Positions 44,199 through 57,556 of a stretch of DNA of 64,000 nucleotides are shown here, one piece after another; the first letter of the stretch is position 1, and every line of letters begins with the position of its first letter. A program made the translations under genes and the position numbers. The DNA comes from an uncultured Planctomycetaceae bacterium. Its GTDB lineage: Bacteria > Planctomycetota > Planctomycetia > Planctomycetales > Planctomycetaceae. The stretch spans positions 416,001-480,000 of the forward strand of contig CAWFGE010000008.1 in NCBI GenBank assembly GCA_963815195.1, in the 5' to 3' direction. Below the pieces are notes generated by a model that saw nothing but the letters and a program-made list of their open reading frames with translations, did not search any database and was not told the DNA's origin.

Positions 44199-47100
44199 TC
44201 ACCGAAACAGCATCCCCGCGTAGCCCACGACGCGGGATTTTTCGCCCGAGACATCGGCGGACGTGGCGTAGGCCACGCGGCGGCTTTGGGTGAGTTTCCC
44301 CAAATGCGCGAGCGTTTTCAAGACAATCACCGCCGGCCGCATCCCGCACATGCTGATGTGGTTTTCGGTGCAGGTTTGATAGAGGGCATCGGGATCGAGT
44401 TTGTCCAACTCGGCGAGCGCCAATCCGTCCAACCGGCGGTTCTCGGCATCGGGGGCGAAGTGGTTCATGTCGCTGGAGATGATGAAGAGCGGCGGTTCGT
44501 CCGTCTCGGCGATGACTTCCGCGAGTTTCTCCGCGAATGTGTTTAATTGATCCAACCGCCCGCCGCCGATGGTGATCCCGACGATTTTCGTCTTGGGAGC
44601 CAGGCGGTGAATCAGCGGCAGTTCCACTTCGATTCCATGCTCGGCCTGATGGGCGGCGGCATCGAGCTTGAGGCCTGGAATCCTTTCGGCCAGACGCTTG
44701 GCAAGCCCCTGATCGGATTCCAACTCGCCGGTGGGCAGCGACCACTTGGCGTAGGGAGCCACCGCCCAGTCCACGCCGTGGGGCGTGTGTTTGGGGCCGA
44801 TGAGAATGACCGTTTTGGGAAACTCGATTTGCGCGAGCACGTCGCCCGCGATTTTTCCCGAATAGACCCAGCCCGCGTGGGGAACCATCGCGGCGGACCA
44901 CCCGGATCGTTCCGCGTTCGCGGGAAGCAGCTCGTCGAGCATTTGGTTCACATCGTCAGCCGAGGCCGGATAGAACGTGCCGGCGACGGCGGGCAGGCGA
45001 ATGTCGGGGCCGGTCACCGAGCGCGGACGGTCCACGACCTGCCCGCGCGGATGGGAGGACATGACGCGCAAGCTCATCACGAGCGTCAGGTCCGGCTCGT
45101 CGATTTCGGCAAGCTCCATCGCTTCTTTGAAGAGGATCTCGGCGTTTTTTTCATCATCGAAGACCCAGGCCCGGCGGTTGCCTTCCGCCACGAGAATCGC
45201 GCGGTCGCCATCAATGATGCCCGCCAGATTGGGGTCGCCCGCGGTGCCGTGCATGTTGGGATCGGTGAGCACCGTCATCGAGACTTTCACTTCGTTCGGC
45301 GGGATGCGGTGATTCGCGAGCGCCCGGGCCAGTTCCTCGCAGAGCGAAAACATCGTGGACTGGAGCGGCATCGTCTGCCGCAGGTTCAGCCGCGTGCTCA
45401 CGAGTTCCTGACCCGATCCGGGAAGGCTGACCCGCAGGCTGACGGCGTTGACGTTGCCGTCGGAGACCGAAGGACAATAGTAACGCGGCGTGGCACCTTG
45501 CATCAACGTTCGCAGCGTCTCGCCGCCGAACTGGGCATAGGCGGCCACGTCCCGCGGCGAGAACAACGGCGGAGCCAGCGGCCAGTTGGCGGTTTCTTCC
45601 TCGCTGAGCACTTGGCCCGCGTGCTCGCTGCCTTCGAAGCGGAACACCTGCGTCTCCTCATCCCGCCAGGCGGTCGCGGGCAGGCCGGCTTTGAGGCAGG
45701 TGCGGTTGAGAAACTCTTCCGCATCCCAGCCATGCTCGATCGCCACGCCCGGCAGCAACAAACCTCGCACAGAGCTGCGGACGACTTGCAAGCCATGCCG
45801 GCCGATGGTGACTGCGCCGATGCGGTCTTCGCCCTGTTCCGCGATTTCTTCGGGCGGCCCCAACAGCCAAACGTCCAAATCGAGATAAGGCAATTCGTTG
45901 CCGGAGATCCGCGGAAAGCGGGGATCGTCCGTGGCCGTGCGAACCGCCGCGAGCGTGAGGGACTGAAACAGCGGCATCACCACGCCGAGGTTCCCACAGC
46001 ACGACCGCAAATGCCCGCCGCGCTTGGCCGTGACGAAAACGCCCGACACCGGATGCTGGGCCAATTCGAGATGTTCCTCGCCGAACAACTCGGCCGGCGA
46101 GAATTGCAGGGAGCGTTCCAGGCTGGCCGCTTTGAGAACCCGCCCCGCCGCCTTGACGACCCGCGCGGATTGCTCGGCGGTCAAATTCGGCAAAGCCAAA
46201 GTGGAAGTCGTCATACCAGCACCTCCTTTTGTTTTGGTTTCAGCGTCTTTCGTCGATCGTTCTTGAACGGCCGATGCGGGCGAAGTCTCCCGGGGAGCCC
46301 GAGCGAACTGCCGCATGTCCACGGGCTGCCGCTGCCGGCCCCAGTCGCCGGGCTCCTCATCGAAATGCCCCGCGACGCGGGCCCCGCAAAACCGGCAGTG
46401 CGAGCCGTCGAGGTTGTATTCGCCGAGCTCGTACCAGTTGCGCTCGATGACAACTTTGTGACAATTCGGACAATACGTGCTCTGCCGCAAGGCGTCGTTC
46501 ACGTTCCCGGTATAAACATATTTGAGCCCCGTGGCCAGGGCGATTTCGCGGGCGGCGATTAGAGTCTCCGGCGGCGTGGGGCCTCGGTCCCGCATGCGGA
46601 AATCGGGATGAAACGCCGTGAAGTGCACCGGCACCTCGTCGCCTACGTTCTCCAGAATCCAATCGCACATCCGCTGGAACTCGTCCGCGTTGTCATTGGC
46701 CTGCGGGATGATCAGGTTCGTAATCTCAAACCACACGTCCGTTTCACGCTTGAGCCAGCGCAGCGTGTCGAGCACGGGCTGAATATGCGACAGCGTGAGC
46801 TTGTAATAGAATTCCTCCTCGAACGCTTTGAGATCCACGTTCGCGGCGTCCATTTCCGCGTAGAAATCCTCGCGGGCGGTTTCGGTGATGTAGCCCGCGG
46901 TCACGGCGACGGCTTTGACTCCCTCGGCCCGGCAAGCGCGGGCGGTCTCGATCGCATACTCGGCCCAAATCACCGGGTCGTTATAAGTAAAGGCCACGCT
47001 TTTGCAGCCGAGGGCTTTTGCGGCGCGGGCGATGTCCTCCGGGCCGGCCCGTTCGCTGAGGCGTGCGATCTCGCGGGATTTGGAGATGTCCCAGTTCTGG

Positions 47101-47435
47101 CAGAACTTGCAGCCCAAATTGCAGCCCGCCGTGCCGAAGGACAGCACACTCGTGCCGGGATAAAAATGGTTGAGCGGCTTCTTTTCGATGGGGTCGATGC
47201 AGAACCCGGTGCTGCGGCCGTAGGTGGTGAGCATCATCTGGCCGCCGATGTTCTGCCGGACAAAGCAGAACCCGCGGTCGCCGGGCTTGAGCACGCATTC
47301 GCGCGGGCAGAGGTCGCAGACGATTTTGCCGTCTTCCGCATGCCACCACTTGCCGGGGTACAAAAACGGCCGTTCGGCCGGGTCAATTTCCGAATTCGCC
47401 AAAATGGTCAGTTGTCGTTCTTCTGTTGTGGACAT
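44199..47435 (-). CDS. amrS: AmmeMemoRadiSam fusion: radical SAM (AmrS) + AMMECR1 (AmrA) + second AMMECR1-like region + MEMO (AmrB)
   Basis: CDLCPREC, DPIEKKPL and GCNLGCKFCQNW; GVFVT...LRSCCG...DDPRF...GRHGL...GLLLPGVA; RLPAVAGTFYP, VPHAGWVYSG, EHGIEVELP, SSDMNH, SMCG and VVGYAG. Confidence 0.93.
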   Translation of the reverse strand: MSTTEERQLTILANSEIDPAERPFLYPGKWWHAEDGKIVCDLCPRECVLKPGDRGFCFVRQNIGGQMMLTTYGRSTGFCIDPIEKKPLNHFYPGTSVLSFGTAGCNLGCKFCQNWDISKSREIARLSERAGPEDIARAAKALGCKSVAFTYNDPVIWAEYAIETARACRAEGVKAVAVTAGYITETAREDFYAEMDAANVDLKAFEEEFYYKLTLSHIQPVLDTLRWLKRETDVWFEITNLIIPQANDNADEFQRMCDWILENVGDEVPVHFTAFHPDFRMRDRGPTPPETLIAAREIALATGLKYVYTGNVNDALRQSTYCPNCHKVVIERNWYELGEYNLDGSHCRFCGARVAGHFDEEPGDWGRQRQPVDMRQFARAPRETSPASAVQERSTKDAETKTKGGAGMTTSTLALPNLTAEQSARVVKAAGRVLKAASLERSLQFSPAELFGEEHLELAQHPVSGVFVTAKRGGHLRSCCGNLGVVMPLFQSLTLAAVRTATDDPRFPRISGNELPYLDLDVWLLGPPEEIAEQGEDRIGAVTIGRHGLQVVRSSVRGLLLPGVAIEHGWDAEEFLNRTCLKAGLPATAWRDEETQVFRFEGSEHAGQVLSEEETANWPLAPPLFSPRDVAAYAQFGGETLRTLMQGATPRYYCPSVSDGNVNAVSLRVSLPGSGQELVSTRLNLRQTMPLQSTMFSLCEELARALANHRIPPNEVKVSMTVLTDPNMHGTAGDPNLAGIIDGDRAILVAEGNRRAWVFDDEKNAEILFKEAMELAEIDEPDLTLVMSLRVMSSHPRGQVVDRPRSVTGPDIRLPAVAGTFYPASADDVNQMLDELLPANAERSGWSAAMVPHAGWVYSGKIAGDVLAQIEFPKTVILIGPKHTPHGVDWAVAPYAKWSLPTGELESDQGLAKRLAERIPGLKLDAAAHQAEHGIEVELPLIHRLAPKTKIVGITIGGGRLDQLNTFAEKLAEVIAETDEPPLFIISSDMNHFAPDAENRRLDGLALAELDKLDPDALYQTCTENHISMCGMRPAVIVLKTLAHLGKLTQSRRVAYATSADVSGEKSRVVGYAGMLFR

Positions 47436-47649
47436 GTTGGGGAGGAGTGAATTGGGGGAAGGGGAAGGAATGCCGAGAGGCGAGGCGTCCGCGCGGTCCC
47501 GGCTTTGAAGAGAACCGCTTATGAAATGAGACAACATTCTCAGGAGAGAACCTGAAAACTGGGAGCGGAAGAATTCGAAGAGCGGACCAGAGGAAATGAC
47601 AGCTGGCCAAATGTTTCATTTATCGATTCAACGCGGTCTCGGGGAGCGG

Positions 47650-49056: not shown

Positions 49057-49188
49057 CCGAATATGTCCTTCCACGATTTCCAATGACCGCGGGTGTGGTT
49101 CGTTCCTGAATTGGACCGTTCCCATCACAATAACCGGGAACCGGCCGCACCGCCACGCCGCGTCCAGTTTCTGAAACCTGTTTGAAAA

Positions 49189-49383
49189 CCTGAGCGGTAG
49201 GCGCTAGCCTCCGGTTTCGATGAAAGGATACTCACAGAATCAAGACCGGAGGCTAGCGCCTTGCCGCTCATGTTTGCAGAGACCGGAGGCTACGCCTTGC
49301 CGCTCATGTTTGCAGAGGCCGGAGGCTAGCGCCTTGCCGCTCATGTTTGCAGAGACCGGAGGCTAGCGCCTTGCCGCTCAGGT
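49189..49383. repeat. REP-like inverted repeat whose right arm is expanded into about 3.8 tandem 37-bp units
   Basis: Unit AGACCGGAGGCTAGCGCCTTGCCGCTCATGTTTGCAG from 49243; inverse arm TGAGCGGTAGGCGCTAGCCTCCGGT at about 49191-49215. Confidence 0.9.
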
Positions 49384-49438
49384 TTTTAGAGGAATCTGTT
49401 TTGAAACACCTTGTGAGGCTTCCGCCGAGGAGCATTTG

Positions 49439-50710
49439 ATGAAAGCGATCGTCACCGTCGGCTTGGGGTTTGGCGACGAAGGCAAAGGGGCCACGGTGGA
49501 TTTTCTCACCCGGCGGTATCGGGCCGAGGTCGTGGTGCGGTATTGCGGTGGCTCGCAGGCGGGGCACAACGTCGAACTGCCCGACGGAAGCCGGCACACA
49601 TTTTCCCAGTTCGGAGCGGGCACCCTGGCCGGGGCGAAAACCTATCTGGGGCCGCGGATGATCATCAGTCCCGCCACGCTGCCCCCCGAAGCCGAGCATC
49701 TGAAGCGCCTGGGCGTCGAGAACCCCTATGCCCTTCTGACCGTGCATCCCGATTGCCTCGTTTCGACGTTTTACCACATCACGATGAACCGGCTCCGCGA
49801 GCTGTCGCGGGGCGAAGATCGGCACGGTTCATGCGGTTTGGGCATCGGCGAAACCAGGCATTATTGGCTCCGCTACGGACAAGACGCGGTGTTCGCCAAC
49901 GACCTTCGCGACCCGCGCACGCTCCGGGCGAAGCTCGCCCTGTTGCGGGACCGCGTCCTGCTCGAGATGCAGGAACTTCCGACGCTCGATGAAGAATCGA
50001 GCCGGGCAATTCATGAAACCCGGCCGGCCGAGGAAGCCGGCTCGCTGCAATCGGCGTTTCAAGGAGCGACTCTGTCCCCCCGTCTTCCCGAGGCTCAGAC
50101 GCTCGTTTTTGAAGGTGCGCAAGGCGTGCTCTTGGATGAATGGAAGGGCTTTCCTCCCTACACCACCTGGAGCACTGTCACCACGCATCACGCCTGGGAA
50201 TTGATTGCAGAGCACCAAATCGAGGAGGTGACGGTGCTAGGCCTCACGCGGGCCTATGCAACCCGCCACGGTTCGGGGCCGTTTCCGACGTTCGATCCAG
50301 AACTCACCGCGCGGACGTTGGATCCCGGAAACCCCGAAAACCCCTGGCAAGGCCGGCTCCGCTGCGGGGCGCTTGATCTGGTGTTGCTCAACTATGCCAT
50401 CTCCGCCTGCCCGATCGACGGGTTGGTTGTCAACAACCTCGATCAAGTTCCCAAAGCGATCCCCGTGTGCCGGCGGTATGCGCGAGCAAGTTCCTTCCCC
50501 GTCCCCAAGAGTCTCAAAGAACAATCCGAACTTACAGAACGACTTCTGTCCGCGCAGCCGGAGATCGAGCCTCGGTCCCCTTCCGAGTTGCTCGAAGATC
50601 TGAAACAGTTTGCCCCCGTCGTTCTCACGGCCGATGGGCCAACGCACCAACACCGGGAGATCCGCACGGATCAGACGATCCTCCCCGCGGACCCTCAGCC
50701 GTTGTGTTAG
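49439..50710 (+). CDS. Divergent adenylosuccinate synthetase-like protein (PurA family paralog)
   Basis: GLGFGDEGKG, GGSQAGHNV, HGSCGLGIGET, VFEGAQGVLLD and RAYATRHGSGPFPT. Confidence 0.85.
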   Translation: MKAIVTVGLGFGDEGKGATVDFLTRRYRAEVVVRYCGGSQAGHNVELPDGSRHTFSQFGAGTLAGAKTYLGPRMIISPATLPPEAEHLKRLGVENPYALLTVHPDCLVSTFYHITMNRLRELSRGEDRHGSCGLGIGETRHYWLRYGQDAVFANDLRDPRTLRAKLALLRDRVLLEMQELPTLDEESSRAIHETRPAEEAGSLQSAFQGATLSPRLPEAQTLVFEGAQGVLLDEWKGFPPYTTWSTVTTHHAWELIAEHQIEEVTVLGLTRAYATRHGSGPFPTFDPELTARTLDPGNPENPWQGRLRCGALDLVLLNYAISACPIDGLVVNNLDQVPKAIPVCRRYARASSFPVPKSLKEQSELTERLLSAQPEIEPRSPSELLEDLKQFAPVVLTADGPTHQHREIRTDQTILPADPQPLC

Positions 50711-51630
50711 AAGTCCGCGATCTTTCCGAGTTCGCTCAAGACTCGACGGGCGGCGGGGCTGATGAGCCGGCCGTCCAGGCAGCACTCGGCGCGGACTTCG
50801 TTCGCGGTGACCCAGCGGTTCGCCGCCGCATTGCTGACTCGCTGCTCGGCGTTGGGGTTCAGCGAGACCTCGAATGCAGTCATTTGATACCGGGTGTCCT
50901 GCCAGGCGCTCGCGGACCAGGCTGCAAAATCCAACAATCGATCGCCGCCGACGGCATAGTCGCTCGGAGCGAGATCGAGCTCTTCAGAGATCTCCCGCTG
51001 AAGGCAGTCCAGGGCAGGCTCCCCGGTTTTCGCGTGCCCGCCCACCAAAAAATATCGGCCCCAGCGTTCGTTGTATTGAACGAGCCATTGCGGGGAATTT
51101 TTGACCCGGCGTTCCATGATGGCGATTCTCGATTCGGAACTCCGCAACCCGCCCCGGACCGGCGGTGGGAACGAGCCGCCATGATCTTGGGACGCCTCGA
51201 TCAATCGGGCGACGACCCGGCGAGCGGTCGGCGAAATCGGCCGCCGGCCGGGATCGAGCACCTCGTCCCGAGCCAGCCATTCCGCGATCAGTCCCGGCGG
51301 GACCACGCCTTCCTCGACGGGAAAACCGAAGACCTCGAGATGGTAATGCTGCACCCGGCCGGAGCGGTCGCTTTGCTGCAATTCGGGCATGTCGCATAAC
51401 AGCCCCGCTTCTCTTTGCGTCGTCTTGCCGAGGACTTCGGCCACGTTGCGCAAAGCAGCATCCGAACCGGCCTCCCGGCGTTCGGCCCCGGCGTCGAGCC
51501 CCGCCGATTTTGTGCGAATTTTTGTCATCGGCAGCGTAAACGCTCCCCACGAGGGATTGTGAACCAAGAGCAACTGTTCGCCGTGATACACAACGGTCAC
51601 AGCCACATCGACGCGCGGGATCTCTGGCAT
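50707..51630 (-). CDS. Tandem NUDIX-domain protein
   Basis: Domain 2 has a near-canonical Nudix box GGHAKTGEPALDCLQREISEELDL; the domain 1 box is degenerate (AALRNVAEVLG). Both domains end in ISP(T/A)ARRV. Confidence 0.78.
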   Translation of the reverse strand: MPEIPRVDVAVTVVYHGEQLLLVHNPSWGAFTLPMTKIRTKSAGLDAGAERREAGSDAALRNVAEVLGKTTQREAGLLCDMPELQQSDRSGRVQHYHLEVFGFPVEEGVVPPGLIAEWLARDEVLDPGRRPISPTARRVVARLIEASQDHGGSFPPPVRGGLRSSESRIAIMERRVKNSPQWLVQYNERWGRYFLVGGHAKTGEPALDCLQREISEELDLAPSDYAVGGDRLLDFAAWSASAWQDTRYQMTAFEVSLNPNAEQRVSNAAANRWVTANEVRAECCLDGRLISPAARRVLSELGKIADF

Positions 51631-51731
51631 GGCAAGGCTTCCTGAATGATCAACAGGTCTTGGAAAAGTGCTTGTGAGTATAACAATTCCCCCATCAACT
51701 TGGTCCGCAAAAATGGGCGGGACGGGAGGTG

Positions 51732-52718
51732 TCACGATTCTTGAAAAGTGTTCCGCAGTAACTGGAGGGCGTTGTTGAGCGACTCATCCCTCGAGTTCTT
51801 CCGCCAAATCAGGCGTTCGCTGATGGCAAATGCCTTTCCCAGCCGGCGGATCACAAAGGTTTTCCGGTCCGCCGAAGTGAGCAGCGCCTCGGGCAAAATC
51901 GCCACGCCCACCTGCAGGCGGGCATATTCGCGGGCCGCGTCCCAGCCGCCGCCTTCCACGGCAAAATACAACTCCGCCGAGGGACGGCACGCGGCTTCCA
52001 ATTGTTGCCGGATCCCGGAATCGCGGTCCAAGCCGATCAATTCCCATTGCGGCAGGTAGCTCTTCAATTCCCGCGCCTCCAGCGGCCGGTTCGGGGCATA
52101 GGTTTTCAGGTCAAGGCCGGCGGGCGTCTTTTGATGGGCAATCGCGGCCAGATCGTACTGGCGCAATTCCTCGACCGACAGGACCGAAGCGGGATGCTCG
52201 GCGTCTTTCAAGACGTTTCGGATCTGTTGGGGAGTATGGGTCACAACCGCCAGATCGAACGTCCCGTCGGCCGTTTTGAGGATTCGTCTCTTTCCCCGGT
52301 CGATCCGAATCTCCAGTTCCACGTCGGGATAATCGCGTTGAAACTGGACGACAAACTTCGGCAGGCCCTGGCTCGCCGTAAACGTCCCGCACCCCAAATG
52401 CAACACCTTCGACGTGGGGGCTTCGGCGGCGATGTATTCCAAGATGCGGTCGTATTGTCCGATCAGTTGCCGCATGGCCGGCAGGACCGCTTTGGCATCA
52501 TCCGTCAAAGCCAGCGTTTTTCCCGAGCCATGCAATAATTTTTTGCCGCAGACGCGTTCGGTTTTGAAGATTTTCAACCGGCGGGTGACTACGGGCTGGT
52601 GATCCCCCAATTCCCGGGCCGCGGCGCTCACGCCTCCGCAATCATGAAAGGCGAGCAGGTTGCGGATCGCTTCGAGCGAGGGGCCGCGACGTTTGGCGGG
52701 GCTTCGATTGGCCGTCAT
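51732..52718 (-). CDS. LysR-family transcriptional regulator
   Basis: HTH GGVSAAARELGDHQPVVTRRLK; FQRDYPDVELEI, GTFDLAV and VGVAILPE in the substrate-binding domain. Confidence 0.88.
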   Translation of the reverse strand: MTANRSPAKRRGPSLEAIRNLLAFHDCGGVSAAARELGDHQPVVTRRLKIFKTERVCGKKLLHGSGKTLALTDDAKAVLPAMRQLIGQYDRILEYIAAEAPTSKVLHLGCGTFTASQGLPKFVVQFQRDYPDVELEIRIDRGKRRILKTADGTFDLAVVTHTPQQIRNVLKDAEHPASVLSVEELRQYDLAAIAHQKTPAGLDLKTYAPNRPLEARELKSYLPQWELIGLDRDSGIRQQLEAACRPSAELYFAVEGGGWDAAREYARLQVGVAILPEALLTSADRKTFVIRRLGKAFAISERLIWRKNSRDESLNNALQLLRNTFQES

Positions 52719-52773
52719 TCCGCGTTCCTTGTTTAAACCCACGAGACAGCCCGGCAACGGCTGTGTCATTTCA

Positions 52774-52822
52774 ATATACGAAAAAGTATATCAAAACCAT
52801 TGTCTATTGCAATAAAGTATAT
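52774..52822. promoter_or_regulatory. AT-rich divergent promoter region with a putative LysR operator
   Basis: ATATAC-GAAAAA-GTATAT dyad (52774-52791) and a second AAAGTATAT. Spacing is 1 nt short of the canonical T-N11-A box. Confidence 0.4.
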
Positions 52823-53123
52823 TTCGTATTTATGCTTTTGAAAAAAGATCCCTCTCCAAAGGCCCAGCCGAAATGGAAGTGACCACGTCTCAAAGGCCCG
52901 GCAAATACCAACAGGAGAAGCGCCCATGAGAAGCCCACCGAAGAAAACTCCCGCGCTGTTTCGCGGCGGCGAGGTGCCCGCTCGCCCGGAGCGCGCTTGG
53001 AAAACTTCGGGAGAAAGGGCGGATTTCCAATGAATCCGGGACTGAAACGCTGTATTGTCGTTAGAAGACCCCCAGCAAACGGCCGCCCTGCTCCGACGGT
53101 TTATTAGGCTGTGTCCGGTAATC

Positions 53124-53199
53124 TCTCCCTGGCCCGAAGCGCAAGCGAGGGAAGCCACGTTCCGGGAAAAATCCTCGCTCGCGCTTCGGGCCAGGGAGA
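53124..53199. repeat. REP-like hairpin (CCCGAAGCGCAAGCGAGG type)
   Basis: 27-bp arms TCTCCCTGGCCCGAAGCGCAAGCGAGG / CCTCGCTCGCGCTTCGGGCCAGGGAGA. Confidence 0.8.
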
Positions 53200-53297
53200 A
53201 TCATCCCAAAATCCGATTCACCGCATCCAGACGAACCCTTTTAACGAAAAGTGGCACAGACATTTTTTGCCGACTTCGAGTTGAAATCGAGTTTTCA

Positions 53298-53612
53298 ATG
53301 AATCCACAAGACTACCGGCCGAAGCCGATCGATACCTCGCACGTCGAGTTGTCCGAGACGATTGCCGCCTTGACGGAGCGACTGGCGGAAAATGCCCATG
53401 ACATCTGGGCCGCGGCCCGCATGGCGGACGGTTGGACGTACGGGACCGAGCGCAAGGACAAGGAGAAGAAACATCCGTGTCTCATCCCGTACGCCGACCT
53501 GCCGGAGAGCGAGAAGCAATACGACCGCAACGCCGCCTTGGAAACGCTCAAAGCGATTATCTCGCTGGGGTATCGCATCGAGCCTGGCGAATGTAACACG
53601 ATGAATCAATGA
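53298..53612 (+). CDS. Stand-alone RyR (ryanodine receptor repeat) domain protein
   Basis: YRPKPIDTSHVEL...ERLAENAHDIWAAARMADGWTYG...KKHPCLIPYADLPESEKQYDR...LGYRI is a complete RyR repeat. Confidence 0.92.
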   Translation: MNPQDYRPKPIDTSHVELSETIAALTERLAENAHDIWAAARMADGWTYGTERKDKEKKHPCLIPYADLPESEKQYDRNAALETLKAIISLGYRIEPGECNTMNQ

Positions 53613-55191
53613 ATGACGTCTTGCAAACTCAGGATCGAAATATGTCCGATGGCACAACTCCGCAACGTAAATTCGTGGTTTTTGTCAGTTCCGTGACAAC
53701 GGAATTCAGCAATCTCCGCGAAAAACTGTGGGAATCCATTTACAAGGCGGGGCACATCCCCGTGGTGCTCGAAAAATATTCGGCCGCGCTCGCCGACGTG
53801 CGAGAGTTCATTGCAAACGAAGTCGCCGATTCCGACATCTTTGTGTTTATTTTGGGGCGCGAATACGGACGCGGTTTTCAACCCGATCAGGCCTCGTTCA
53901 TCGATGCCGAGTTGCAACAAGCCGTTCGTTTGCAGATTCCGATCATTTTTTTGAAGGCGGATTACACAACTGCGCACGAAACGCCTTTGTCGCCCGAGCA
54001 ACAAAAAATCGAAGAACTCTATCATTCCCTGTTGGAGAAGGCGCAAAAGCATGCAACCCGAATCATTACGTTTTCGCCGGCAAAAGAGATCAACGCGGAA
54101 TTTGGCGATTTAAGGCAGAACTTTACGAACGCGCTTCACGACCTCGCAGGTTCGCTCCGGACCGGGGGGTGGGTTCCGGCTTCCTGGTTTGAACGAATGA
54201 GCGAACAGATCAGCCTCGGCTCAACCGTCAGCCAAAATCCGTTCTTCGAGCGTTTCGTGAGAAGGCTCGACTCGTTTCAGATTTTGTCTCGCCGCACAGT
54301 GACCTTCGGTGATCAAAAGGAAATGATTGCGAACTTCTTTTGGGACACGATGTTGCCGCGGCTGCCTGTATCCGGCGTGAGGCGGTTGTTTTTCGAGTCG
54401 GGTTCGACGATCGCTTATTTGTCGTATGAATTCGTCCAGCGTACGAAAAAGCCGTGGGTCCGGCATGGATCGACGAAACGGAGCTGGTCGTCAATACGAA
54501 TAACATCCTGACGTACCTGGATTTTGTGCTAGCCGACCCGTATGCCGATCCGATTGATTGCCGTTTGTGGCCTCCGGCACCCGCCGATACCTATTACGGC
54601 GCAACATTTGGGCGGTTGACCTCACTCATTGAGTTATGGCCCCCGGCGGAGCCGCGGGAATTGGCGAAGGATGCGGCCAAAGCGTTAAACGACATGGCCG
54701 ACGCCTTGGAATTTGGAGACGACACGTTGATCCTGATGACCGCATCGGGTTTGGACAACTCGACCGCGGGATTCCAAGGGCCGCATGTGGGAAGTTATTA
54801 CAATATGCTCATTAAGAAGTTCCTGTTGTCCAAAGACGTGCCGACAGCTCTTGTTTTGGAGGACGCCAAAGTCTTTAAGAGCTTCCATAAAGGAAAGTGT
54901 TTTGGCGTATGCGACGGTGGCGGACCCGATAACTGGGAAAGCATCTGCAAAACAAAGCCATTGGCGATCGTAACGTGCGCGTCGAAAGAGAATGCCGAGC
55001 AGCGCCAAGCGGACCTGCGGGACCTCACCTTTGAATTTCAGCATATCGAACCGTTGCCATCCATGCCGGATGATGTGGACGCTTCCGGGGATTTTTTTTG
55101 CATTCTGGCCGCGAATCAGCAGTTTGCGGAACGGTTCGAACTTGACGGAAAGATTAACACCGCGCCTCAAACAAACGCACGAAGAACGTGA
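53609..55191 (+). CDS. DUF4062 (TIR-like) domain fused to a DeoR C-terminal-like sugar-phosphate sensor domain; frameshifted near 54463
   Basis: VFVSSVTTEFSNLRE...EVADSDIFVFILGREYG...AELQQAVRLQIPII; then QKEMIA...LFFESGSTIAYL...LVVNTNNIL...ILMTASGLD...IKKFLL...LVLEDAKV. One G restored after CGG joins the two ORFs. ATGA overlap with the RyR gene. Confidence 0.72.
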
Positions 55192-55206
55192 AAGGGACGC
55201 ATCGAG

Positions 55207-56706
55207 ATGGTGACGTGGACTCTCAAGGCCCGCCGGCGATTGCGGAGCTTGATGGCGCGCCGGCTGTGCCCGCCTCGCGTGATCGGCGACTTAGAGGCCG
55301 AGGCGGCGGATCCCGATCCCGTTGTTCCAGAACGTGCCGCCCTGGCGGCTTTGATGAACGAGCGGCTGATGGAACTGGCACAGATCCTCGAAGAGGTCTT
55401 CGGGGAAGAGGCGCACGTCGTTGTGCAGGACGTGCTCTTGGGATACCGGCGGCACGAGGACCGCTACATTTTGCTCGTCGAGGTGTCGGGGGGAGATCGG
55501 CCGGGAGGGCACGTCGTCAAGATCGGCGCCTATCACGAACTCTTCCCGGAACTGGCCGCTTGGGAGTCGTGCAAGCCCGACGGCCTCGTCCACGATCTGG
55601 TGTTGTTGCCGCTCGAGTGCGGCTATGAGGCCGAGGGAGACGATCCAAATCGCCGAATGGCCCTCTTGTATGGAGCGGCTCATCAATTGATCGGCGTGGA
55701 GTCCATCACGACCTTCGAGGAAGCGGCCCTCACTTCGGTGCTCCACGGCTGGCCGATGTTGGAGTCGATCGGCGTCGTGTTGTGGGAATTGTACGAGCGG
55801 CTGGGGCATTTGCTGTATTACGTCCAATTCGAATACGACCCCGCCAAGGAATACGCGCGGGATCGCCGGAACCGCTATGTCCTTGAGATCGGGCACTTGG
55901 AAGAGAATCTTCGGCTGTGGCACACGGATCCGTTTCGCAACATTCAGCGGATCGTCAACGCGGCCCTCCAGAACCGAATGGGCGGCGGGCAGTTTATCAA
56001 CCCGGTGGATTATTTGGAGAAGACCGTTTTGCAGATCGTCAACTGGTTGAAGGAGGACGGCAAAGTTCACAGAAATGCCAGAGACAACGGACCCCGCCCC
56101 GAAGACCTTGTTCCCGGCATGATGCGCGGCTGCGCGCACGGCGACCTGCACGGGCGGAACATCCTCGTGGGACAGGTTCGCGGACGCGTGCTGTGGCCCA
56201 CGGTTTTCGATTACGAAGACATGGGACCGTGCAACTGGATCGGCTGGGATTTCGTCAAGATGGAAACCGAATTGAAAATCCGGGCCTATCCCAGTCTGTT
56301 CCTGGGGCCATTGTCGCTTCCCGAGAAAGACGGCCCCGAGGACGAGAGCGAAATTCACCCGCACTATGTCGAATCGATCGCGAACTTTGAACAGGAATTG
56401 GCGTCGGAAACCGAACGCTGCCATCAAAACAACCGCTGGCCGCGAGTCGCGGAAGCCGATTCCGCCGAGGCGAGGTTAAAGGCTGTGCTCTTGGAAATTC
56501 GGCACCGAGCCGCGATTCATCTCGGGGACAACTTCGGCCGCCCGAAACGCTGGTTGGAAGAGTATTACTTTTTGTTGGGCTGTTACGGGGTGTCCGTGGC
56601 CCGGTTCGGCAATTTGATCGACAAGCAAACCGCCGCGGCGATGATTTCCGCAGGCGTGGCGTTTGCCCGCCTCAACTGGCCGCGCACCTATTCGGGCGGC
56701 CGCTGA
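55207..56706 (+). CDS. Phosphotransferase/protein-kinase-like protein (APH-type fold)
   Basis: HVVKIG (beta-3 Lys), AHGDLHGRNILV catalytic loop, VFDYED and DFVKMETELK. Confidence 0.8.
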   Translation: MVTWTLKARRRLRSLMARRLCPPRVIGDLEAEAADPDPVVPERAALAALMNERLMELAQILEEVFGEEAHVVVQDVLLGYRRHEDRYILLVEVSGGDRPGGHVVKIGAYHELFPELAAWESCKPDGLVHDLVLLPLECGYEAEGDDPNRRMALLYGAAHQLIGVESITTFEEAALTSVLHGWPMLESIGVVLWELYERLGHLLYYVQFEYDPAKEYARDRRNRYVLEIGHLEENLRLWHTDPFRNIQRIVNAALQNRMGGGQFINPVDYLEKTVLQIVNWLKEDGKVHRNARDNGPRPEDLVPGMMRGCAHGDLHGRNILVGQVRGRVLWPTVFDYEDMGPCNWIGWDFVKMETELKIRAYPSLFLGPLSLPEKDGPEDESEIHPHYVESIANFEQELASETERCHQNNRWPRVAEADSAEARLKAVLLEIRHRAAIHLGDNFGRPKRWLEEYYFLLGCYGVSVARFGNLIDKQTAAAMISAGVAFARLNWPRTYSGGR

Positions 56707-57556
56707 TGGAATACGTTTTCAACGTGATCCCTTTCCCAAGTTTGATTTTGGAGAATCGATTGATGCCTGCGACCGCCGGCGAAGTGCTGGAGCATCTCTA
56801 TCCCGGATTTCAGTGGCCTTTGGAAATCGCCATCGGATGGTTGAGAGATGGCGATCCGCAAAAGTTGAAGGAAGCCATCGCGCTTTTGCGCGGCCTGAGG
56901 AAGAATTATCCCGATGCGCCGCAGGTCGGCCAGTGGCTGGTCCTGGCGCTGATTGAAAACCGCCAGCCCAAGGAGGCCGAAACGGTCCTCGATGAAACGG
57001 AGCGATTGTTTCGGTACCGCGATGAGGAACTCTTGTGCCGCTGGGGCCGGCTGTTTCGCGAGCAGGGGGATCAAAATCTCGCGGATGTGGCTGAGGATGA
57101 GACCAACCGCGAAACCGCGATCCTCCTTTACCGGAAGGCGCGGGACAAATACGAAGAGGCTGCGACAGTCCGGAAAGGGCATTACCCGCTGATCAACGTG
57201 GCCGAGTTGTCCCTCACCCTGGCCGGGCTCGTCGATGCCTCGCATCGCGAGGAAGAACTCGCCCGCGCGGAGACCGTCGCCCGCGCCTGCTCGAAACGCG
57301 GGACAAGTGGCCCGTGGACCTGCCCGACGACGAAGTCTGGCATTTGGCCACAGCGGCCCAATGCGAAATGATCCTCAAGGATTGGGAACGCGCCGCGGGG
57401 TTCTATCAACACGCCGCGCGCCACGTTCACTGCCGCGAACGAGACCGCAAGTCGATCCGCCAGGGATGCCGCCGCACGAAAGAAGCCTTCGGGCGGTTCG
57501 ATGTGACGGATTTCGGGCCGTTAAACGATGAGACGGCGGTGTTCGATTCCAATTGA
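56706..57556 (+). CDS. TPR protein resembling TPR-sensor / MAP3K TRAF-binding (DUF4071-type) helical domains; frameshifted near 57288
   Basis: EELLCRWGRLFRE...KARDKYEEA...HYPLINVAELSL...EVWHLATAAQCEMILKDWERAAGFYQHA. One C restored in GCCTG joins the two ORFs. TGATG overlap with the kinase gene. Confidence 0.68.

Follow-up and report, generated by a model that had tools for sequence, protein, structure and literature searches.

What holds a bacterial RyR domain, a TIR-like enzyme, a kinase, a TPR-S protein, two NUDIX domains and a LysR-family regulator together in one locus, and what could such a locus do? We addressed this question for a 64,000-nucleotide stretch of DNA (the window) from an uncultured Planctomycetaceae bacterium (assembly GCA_963815195.1, 8.9 Mb in 25 contigs), which corresponds to positions 416001-480000 of contig C8 (CAWFGE010000008.1). 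A preliminary description of the locus at 49439-57556 had seen in it a possible conflict system working with a signal derived from nicotinamide adenine dinucleotide (NAD) or another nucleotide, and after neighbourhood and domain analysis a conserved conflict locus linked to NAD and ADP-ribose (ADPR) is still the best reading. In our estimate the chances are about even that we have here one representative of a planctomycete cassette built round an exchangeable TIR-like gene, and that it serves antiviral signalling through ADP-ribose in a circuit that includes a predicted eraser; we infer every functional step of this circuit from homology and genomic context.

The conserved core and the payload slot

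The features of the locus, in window coordinates, are the following.

53298-53612, plus strand: RyR, a stand-alone domain of the Repeat12 type, core part (Pfam RyR)
53609-55191, plus strand: DUF4062-DeoRC, payload (Pfam DUF4062; fold match to the DeoR C-domain), with a one-base frameshift near 54467
55207-56706, plus strand: predicted small-molecule kinase of the APH/choline-kinase fold (TCAD9-like), core part (structure model, fold matches and motifs)
56706-57556, plus strand: putative sensor protein TPR-S, core part (Pfam TPR-S), with a one-base error at 57286
51732-52769, minus strand: LysR-family regulator, core part (Pfam HTH_1 and LysR_substrate), divergent from the operon head
51160-51630, minus strand, boundaries approximate: NUDIX-A, first domain of the tandem NUDIX protein, probable start ATG at 51630, no Nudix box
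50707-51159, minus strand, boundaries approximate: NUDIX-B, second domain of the tandem NUDIX protein (Pfam NUDIX), intact Nudix box
52770-52860: AT-rich divergent promoter, 26% guanine plus cytosine (GC), with a T-N11-A palindrome
49439-50710, plus strand: PurA-like gene, a neighbour outside the system (Pfam Adenylsucc_synt)

The coordinates agree with the earlier account of four closely coupled plus-strand genes: RyR and DUF4062-DeoRC share an ATGA overlap (53609-53612), a 15-nt gap (55192-55206) separates DUF4062-DeoRC from the kinase, and the kinase and TPR-S genes overlap in TGATG (56704-56708). The operon diverges from LysR and the tandem NUDIX gene across the AT-rich promoter, as had also been proposed. 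The earlier domain assignments each found a Pfam match in the window proteins, namely RyR (E 5.5e-37), DUF4062 (5.1e-16), TPR-S (7.4e-12), NUDIX (1.6e-11), the LysR substrate domain (5.1e-18) and Adenylsucc_synt (7.6e-57). The kinase matched TCAD9 (E 1.6e-9), under the cut-off of that family.

With the kinase as bait we collected 159 loci, many of them short: 80 came from the 84 genome matches and 79 from the best 80 of 112 metagenome matches. After addition of four genome regions and removal by eye of 30 near-duplicates and two weak matches, 131 loci were left, of which 47 had at least 6 kb on both sides (about 20 kb fetched) and form the full-flank set. By their titles, most of the 159 loci come from Planctomycetota, with others from Lentisphaerae, Kiritimatiellae, Victivallales, Hydrogenedentota and one Alcaligenaceae bin. 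Searches with the window proteins by tblastn found the kinase in 158 of the 159 loci, TPR-S in 111, RyR in 80, NUDIX in 77, LysR in 50, the PurA-like gene in one and DUF4062-DeoRC in none. Hidden Markov models trained on the same loci that they scored, which as relatives are not independent, detected TPR-S in 46, NUDIX in 34, RyR in 28 and LysR in 23 of the full-flank loci; all four partners were present in 15/47 and at least one in 47/47. The same set contained a TIR or DUF4062 domain (31 loci), a cyclase (9), TrkA (8), a third NUDIX-like family (8) and PFK (7).

The partners are also fused to one another. The kinase and TPR-S alone formed one open reading frame (ORF) 65 times in the 131 loci, 13 ORFs joined NUDIX-B directly to the kinase and seven joined it to TIR/DUF4062, and further orders included RyR-kinase-TPR-S, kinase-TPR-S-RyR, NUDIX-TIR and RyR-TPR-S-cyclase. 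The spread is patchy: the kinase was found in 11 of 201 genomes of the class, and in a sample of the phylum the kinase part of the profile matched in 5 of 401. All 11 kinase-positive genomes of the class had an RyR match, as against 20 of the 190 others, kin among them not being independent. The clustering of these genes far exceeds chance, and the conserved core consists of the kinase, TPR-S, RyR, the box-bearing and box-less NUDIX domains and the divergent LysR. The idea of one conserved multi-gene system stands for these parts, which co-occur and fuse across genomes, but not for DUF4062-DeoRC and the PurA-like gene, both of which lie outside the core.

Several variants were observed beside the core. 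A third, divergent NUDIX-like family lies behind TPR-S in several loci (e.g. L102:12225-13163; Atlas NUDIX matches at 0.91), and in L085 an HTH domain is fused to kinase-TPR-S. Copies of PFK occur in L026, L029, L041, L070, L074, L099 and L102, some of them directly between LysR and NUDIX-A, and PGK occurs in L095. The window genome itself carries an orphan NUDIX-B relative with an altered box (C22:306842-307297), an orphan TPR-S-cyclase (C23:313153-315255) and an orphan DUF4062 protein akin to the NLR-like payloads (C24:113085-115253), which might act on the system in trans.

The payload slot is variable and exchangeable, and TIR or DUF4062 domains are its usual occupants. Those counted in 31 full-flank loci, over some 20 kb per locus, lie mostly in NLR-like proteins; the background, 23 TIR_2 and DUF4062 matches in five genomes (about 38.6 Mb), corresponds to about 0.01 per 20 kb. 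Among 166 neighbours scanned with Pfam, out of 227 proteins selected, we found TIR_2 or DUF4062 fused to NACHT, nSTAND1, AAA_16 or NB-ARC with TPR or WD40, together with TIR-trypsin, TPR-S-cyclase, TrkA-RyR, NUDIX-RelA, SLOG and Macro proteins, which supports the payload types independently of the models trained on the loci. The column of the conserved Glu was kept in 61/64 TIR and 24/30 DUF4062 payload domains.

In the window the slot holds DUF4062-DeoRC. Its DUF4062 domain (PF13271) scored 59.1 bits against a cut-off of 24.7, and it matched TIR_2 weakly (E 0.01) and ThsB of PADLOC with E 0.004. The conserved Glu is E101, in a column invariant in 22 homologues. A profile of the homologues matched KpSwz (10wc) with E 8.6e-31, the match ending at profile position 211 of 497, and E101 aligned with an Ala of 10wc_A that, on presumed numbering, we take to be the KpSwz E97A site. 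The C-terminal domain has no Pfam match; the DeoRC label given to it earlier was nevertheless borne out by the model of an intact homologue, the top structural match of which was the E. coli DeoR C-domain (Z 15.7, root-mean-square deviation 2.5, 179 aligned), and by ESGST and TNN motifs in 21/22 and 22/22 homologues. DeoR-type domains bind pentose phosphates, and from fold and motif a pentose phosphate is the probable ligand here as well. One 665-residue homologue, P0123, carries an added XRE-type HTH domain. Two preprints of 2026 show that DUF4062 enzymes hydrolyse NAD+ to ADPR in phage defence by means of the conserved Glu (10.64898/2026.05.01.722283; 10.64898/2026.09.04.749371).

DUF4062-DeoRC had been regarded as an integral part of the circuit, which its absence from the 159 related loci and from 400 other genomes of the phylum contradicts; neither viral contigs nor plasmids gave a match. 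Its GC content is 0.52-0.53, compared with 0.59-0.64 in the neighbours measured, and in L106, the closest relative fetched (kinase 70% identical), RyR adjoins the kinase, with a TPR-repeat protein upstream. We interpret the gene as a recent insertion in the payload slot, between RyR and the kinase.

Both the DUF4062-DeoRC and the TPR-S gene are interrupted by a single one-base shift. Contigs of runs X1 and X2, which belong to different coded studies (one of the runs may be the source sample), have an extra G behind 57286 that restores a single TPR-S frame, so that this frameshift looks like an assembly error. The break near 54467 lies outside the contigs examined; 23 homologues are single uninterrupted proteins of 456-665 residues (22 of them with DUF4062), and from these and from the indels elsewhere in the assembly it, too, looks like an assembly error. 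Similar shifts were found in 6 of 76 conserved genes tested in the same assembly, the canonical purA (C2:31546-32821) being one of the six. Because indels are this common here, we rejected programmed frameshifting and gene decay as explanations.

Predicted functions of the core proteins

The kinase model (predicted local distance difference test score 91) had its best fold matches in PsiK, a putative APH, maltokinase, and methylthioribose and choline kinases (Z 13-15). Its motifs K105, HGDLHGRN (311-318) and D335 are intact, and the catalytic loop is kept in 43/43 and 42/43 homologues. By its modelled fold, together with the Lys, the HxDxxxxN motif and the metal-binding Asp, the protein is predicted to be an APH/choline-kinase-like small-molecule kinase. 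The relay of the signal by protein phosphorylation, as first suggested, is unlikely because the fold is of this small-molecule type, and an output gated by TPR-S is more likely. The kinase-TPR-S profile had no relative among sequences of the PDB except a designed TPR, and the kinase family was absent from the viral contigs searched. TPR-S occurs on cyclases as well as on the kinase, and TPR-S proteins of related loci match MAP3K_TRAF_bd of Pfam. In a Thoeris survey, the TPR domain of the type VIII effector ThsI is presumed to sense cyclic ADPR (cADPR) (10.64898/2025.12.03.692087); it may well belong to the same TPR-S family.

The RyR domain had been taken for a sensor. Residues H34/W37/R52/H59/D76, matched by spacing and not by alignment, stand at the exact spacing of H75/W78/H100/D117 in the phage protein RyDEP and also at that of H129/W132/K147/H154/D171 in RyR Tad, and the H-W-H-D set is present in 39/49 stand-alone copies. 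Phage proteins with RyR domains either cleave 2'/3'-cADPR or sequester it (PMC13232231; 10.64898/2026.06.04.730250). The domain keeps the residues that these proteins use on cADPR; a binder or eraser of the signal is more likely than a sensor, and we predict a cADPR/ADPR sponge or glycosidase.

The canonical Nudix box was found in 0/49 A-type NUDIX domains, which instead conserve the motifs N..W..FtLPmtK and S.R...Y, and in 48/58 B-type domains (at residue 233 of the window protein). NUDIX-A is thus likely to bind a ligand and NUDIX-B is predicted to be an active pyrophosphatase. The proposal that NUDIX resets the circuit is still the best reading for the box-bearing domain, but it does not extend to NUDIX-A. 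As for LysR, its control of expression, likewise proposed before, is the best reading of a divergent placement that is kept (at most 700 nt from the first system gene in 30/36 loci with both LysR and kinase) and of a LysR-type T-N11-A palindrome in the promoter (ATTG-N7-CAAT, 52799-52813); a second palindrome lies at 52775-52790. Enumeration of spaced palindromes returned mostly GC-rich chance words, and ATT-N9-AAT alone was taken further: this pattern, chosen post hoc, lies upstream of LysR in 11/35 loci compared with 1.6 in block shuffles, of which 0/500 reached 11.

The proposed circuit and its rivals

In the circuit that we propose, the payload would sense infection through the STAND-TPR/WD40 domains seen in relatives or, in the window, by way of DeoRC, which would bind a pentose phosphate released when nucleic acids are broken down, for example deoxyribose-5-phosphate. 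The TIR/DUF4062 domain would then convert NAD+ to ADPR or a cyclic isomer; TPR-S would bind the product and switch on the kinase, which would phosphorylate a small metabolite and so arrest growth, and in some loci TPR-S-cyclase or TrkA-RyR proteins may serve as extra outputs. RyR would sequester or open the cyclic signal, NUDIX-A would bind the signal, and NUDIX-B would split ADPR to AMP and ribose-5-phosphate, providing both threshold and reset, with LysR governing transcription from its T-N11-A box. The kinase substrate is the weakest step.

A number of observations weigh against this circuit. No TIR/DUF4062 domain was present in the roughly 20 kb fetched for 16 of the 47 full-flank loci, 19 lack RyR and 24 lack LysR, and some slots are occupied by PFK (7/47), PGK or chaperones. 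PADLOC gave three weak matches only, and it, NCBIfam and PHROGs name no system at the locus. In the RyDEP paper, phage RyR homologues that had similar residues mostly bound cADPR without cleaving it when tested (PMC13232231), and the animal Repeat12 is reported to bind ATP/ADP via the same Trp (PMC12627627); the RyR residues therefore do not fix the ligand. Finally, the DUF4062 enzymes described in 10.64898/2026.05.01.722283 yield linear ADPR and act by NAD+ depletion, which would leave RyR without a cyclic substrate from this payload. Such a substrate could come from the six TIR_2 matches elsewhere in the window genome.

The main rival, a serious if unlikely competitor, makes the core a safety or salvage module, in which RyR, NUDIX and the kinase would detoxify or recycle ADPR from the cell's own TIR/DUF4062 NADases, for which NAD+ depletion would be the sole means of killing. 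Homology makes RyR proteins and NUDIX-B removers of the signal, the nearest folds of the kinase include ribose- and sugar-derivative kinases, and DUF4062 and NLR-like payloads can defend unaided; however, TPR-S accompanying the kinase in 46/47 loci and recurring on cyclases is the layout of a ligand-gated enzyme, and no recurrent NAD-rebuilding enzyme was found among the 166 neighbours. The 13 NUDIX-B-kinase and seven NUDIX-B-TIR/DUF4062 fusions would also fit a scheme, improbable in our view, in which the NUDIX pair and the kinase make a second phosphorylated messenger from the TIR product (for example a phosphoribosyl-AMP/ADP-like compound) that DeoRC, TrkA-RyR or cyclase proteins read. Phosphoribosyl-AMP/ADP-like messengers act in plant immunity, and the DeoR fold matched here is of a type that binds pentose phosphates, but DeoRC appears in no other locus.

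Less probable still is an operon under LysR control that handles sugar phosphates or nucleotides in metabolism or general stress, near which TIR-like genes merely gather. LysR, DeoRC, a small-molecule kinase and the PFK copies lend the loci a metabolic flavour; against this, TIR/DUF4062 domains are fused to NUDIX-B, lie inside the operon and are enriched about fifty-fold over background, and the distribution is patchy. We consider it very improbable that the kinase phosphorylates proteins as a relay with DUF4062-DeoRC, and perhaps the PurA-like gene, as integral parts. Among the APH-fold matches, some have peptides as substrates (LxmK, TvaE), and the combination of a TIR-like domain, TPR-S (with its MAP3K_TRAF_bd matches) and a kinase resembles ASK1; yet the structural matches listed are kinases that modify small molecules or peptides, none of them of the Hanks type, and the loci offer neither protein regularly (DUF4062-DeoRC 0/159, PurA-like 1/159).

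Neighbouring sequence, known systems and significance

The preliminary description had left the membership of the PurA-like gene uncertain. We rejected it as a part of the system: besides its single occurrence among the kinase-bait loci, close homologues were present in 4/200 other genomes, none of them kinase-positive, and the gene appears to be a stray from an NrtR-vWA operon. In L190 and L193 it follows kinase-like genes and genes that are presumably vWA-like, in L190 together with an NrtR-like regulator, and the matching operon of the window genome (C12:914222-916937) is without it. The gene is convergent with the tandem NUDIX gene, their stop codons overlapping. It keeps GDEGKG and has PWQGRLR where canonical PurA has TVTGRPR, which suggests another amino-acid substrate. 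In PurZ, Ser replaces the Asp of the PurA GDEGKG motif; identity with PurZ was rejected, as GDEGKG is kept and NF038379 scored 38.7 bits against a cut-off of 300.

Upstream of the PurA-like gene (49183-49402) lies a cluster of direct and inverted REP-like repeats of about 37 nt, a 16-mer of which has 62 occurrences genome-wide. A 27-bp inverted repeat, 96% complementary, separates the promoter from RyR (53124-53199), an arm of which has four genome-wide matches at up to three mismatches, two of them at this site; it could be a repeat or an attenuator. At 44199-47537 the window contains an ORF of 1112 residues, which, on reading by eye, we take to resemble radical-SAM AmmeMemoRadiSam fused to AMMECR1-like and Memo-like domains.

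The earlier remark that no named system has this composition held in PADLOC, NCBIfam, PHROGs and full-text literature searches. These searches returned no description of the cassette (preprint supplements, which may list it, lie outside them); in the literature searched it is undescribed, a probable variant of NAD signalling immunity of the TIR type, unusual in its predicted built-in eraser and its kinase output. Burroughs et al. in 2015 reportedly outlined a nucleotide-centric network of TPR-S, SLOG, cyclase, SLATT, RyR and TrkA, and of its members TPR-S, RyR, TPR-S-cyclase and TrkA-RyR recur in the cassette loci. That network is not known to hold a kinase-NUDIX-LysR core, but it is the main risk to novelty. 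By Pfam, no Avs/NLR-like STAND ATPase with sensor repeats is present in the window locus, and such proteins are common in relatives. Pfam, PADLOC and NCBIfam gave no match in the window to any known Ths effector (SIR2-SLOG, Macro-TM, caspase, SLATT, CMP-hydrolase-TPR).

Of the Thoeris systems, type VIII (ThsI: CMP-hydrolase and TPR) shares a TIR-like signal maker and a TPR-bearing enzyme presumed to sense a cADPR-type signal (10.64898/2025.12.03.692087), but here the effector is an APH-type kinase by prediction and RyR, two NUDIX domains and LysR are added. Where Thoeris has its signal synthase, the window payload has DUF4062, and relatives carry TIR_2 mostly within NLR-like proteins. Most payloads of the cassette belong to the STAND/NLR-like class that the survey sets aside, and 'kinase' and 'Nudix' are absent from its main text (the 29-effector lists of Fig. 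1C/Table S1 fall outside this comparison). The DUF4062/NIR defences (Swarozyc, Avs2-NIR, Vulcan, Vesta, Evangelion) have the same NADase domain and catalytic Glu, whereas DUF4062-DeoRC ends in a DeoR-type domain in place of auxiliary, HEAT or STAND domains and is embedded in a five-part cassette. Identity with Swarozyc was rejected, the C-terminal domain being DeoR-like and not of the KpSwz auxiliary type; 'DeoR' is absent from the available text of the NIR paper (10.64898/2026.09.04.749371). The vWA-MoxR-VMAP ternary systems likewise use an APH-like (TCAD9) kinase family as conflict effector (PMC7159879, PMC8195603, PMC10910872). Membership in these systems was rejected: no MoxR, vWA or VMAP was found in the window genes or the 166 neighbours, and the kinase lies below the TCAD9 cut-off. 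In the literature, so far as its text was available, TCAD9 is used only as a ternary-system or kinase-family label, and the available text of two Kaur papers mentions APH-like effectors and not RyR, TPR-S or LysR; two other sources are background only (PMC9503650; 10.1101/2023.05.26.542521).

Phage RyDEP glycosidase and the RyR Tad sponge have the PF02026 domain in common with the window protein, in which their ligand-binding and catalytic residues recur with the same spacing (PMC13232231; 10.64898/2026.06.04.730250), but the RyR described here is host-encoded and stands beside the host's own TIR/NIR genes. According to the RyDEP paper, hydrolysis of 2'/3'-cADPR had not been known for any protein until its phage enzyme (PMC13232231). 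In a host RyR encoded next to TIR-like genes of the same cell, bacteria would have a direct candidate means of damping such signals. This RyR also points to a native ligand of RyR repeats that can be put to the test, a matter of interest for the long-standing question of cADPR and the ryanodine receptor. The locus also offers a candidate class of kinase effectors, a ligand test for TPR-S and a NADase-DeoRC fusion for which the literature examined has no counterpart.

We tentatively suggest, as a possibility somewhat short of even, that the cassette is a plug-in chassis for immunity based on ADP-ribose, encoded by the host and controlled at the level of transcription, in which any TIR/DUF4062 sensor may be wired to a TPR-S-gated kinase and an off-switch (RyR glycosidase or sponge plus NUDIX), making the signalling tunable or reversible. 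If so, the NADase of the window would fire on sugar-phosphate debris of nucleic-acid breakdown, and bacterial RyR domains would have a native cellular role, from which phage RyDEP and the repeats of ryanodine receptors could derive.

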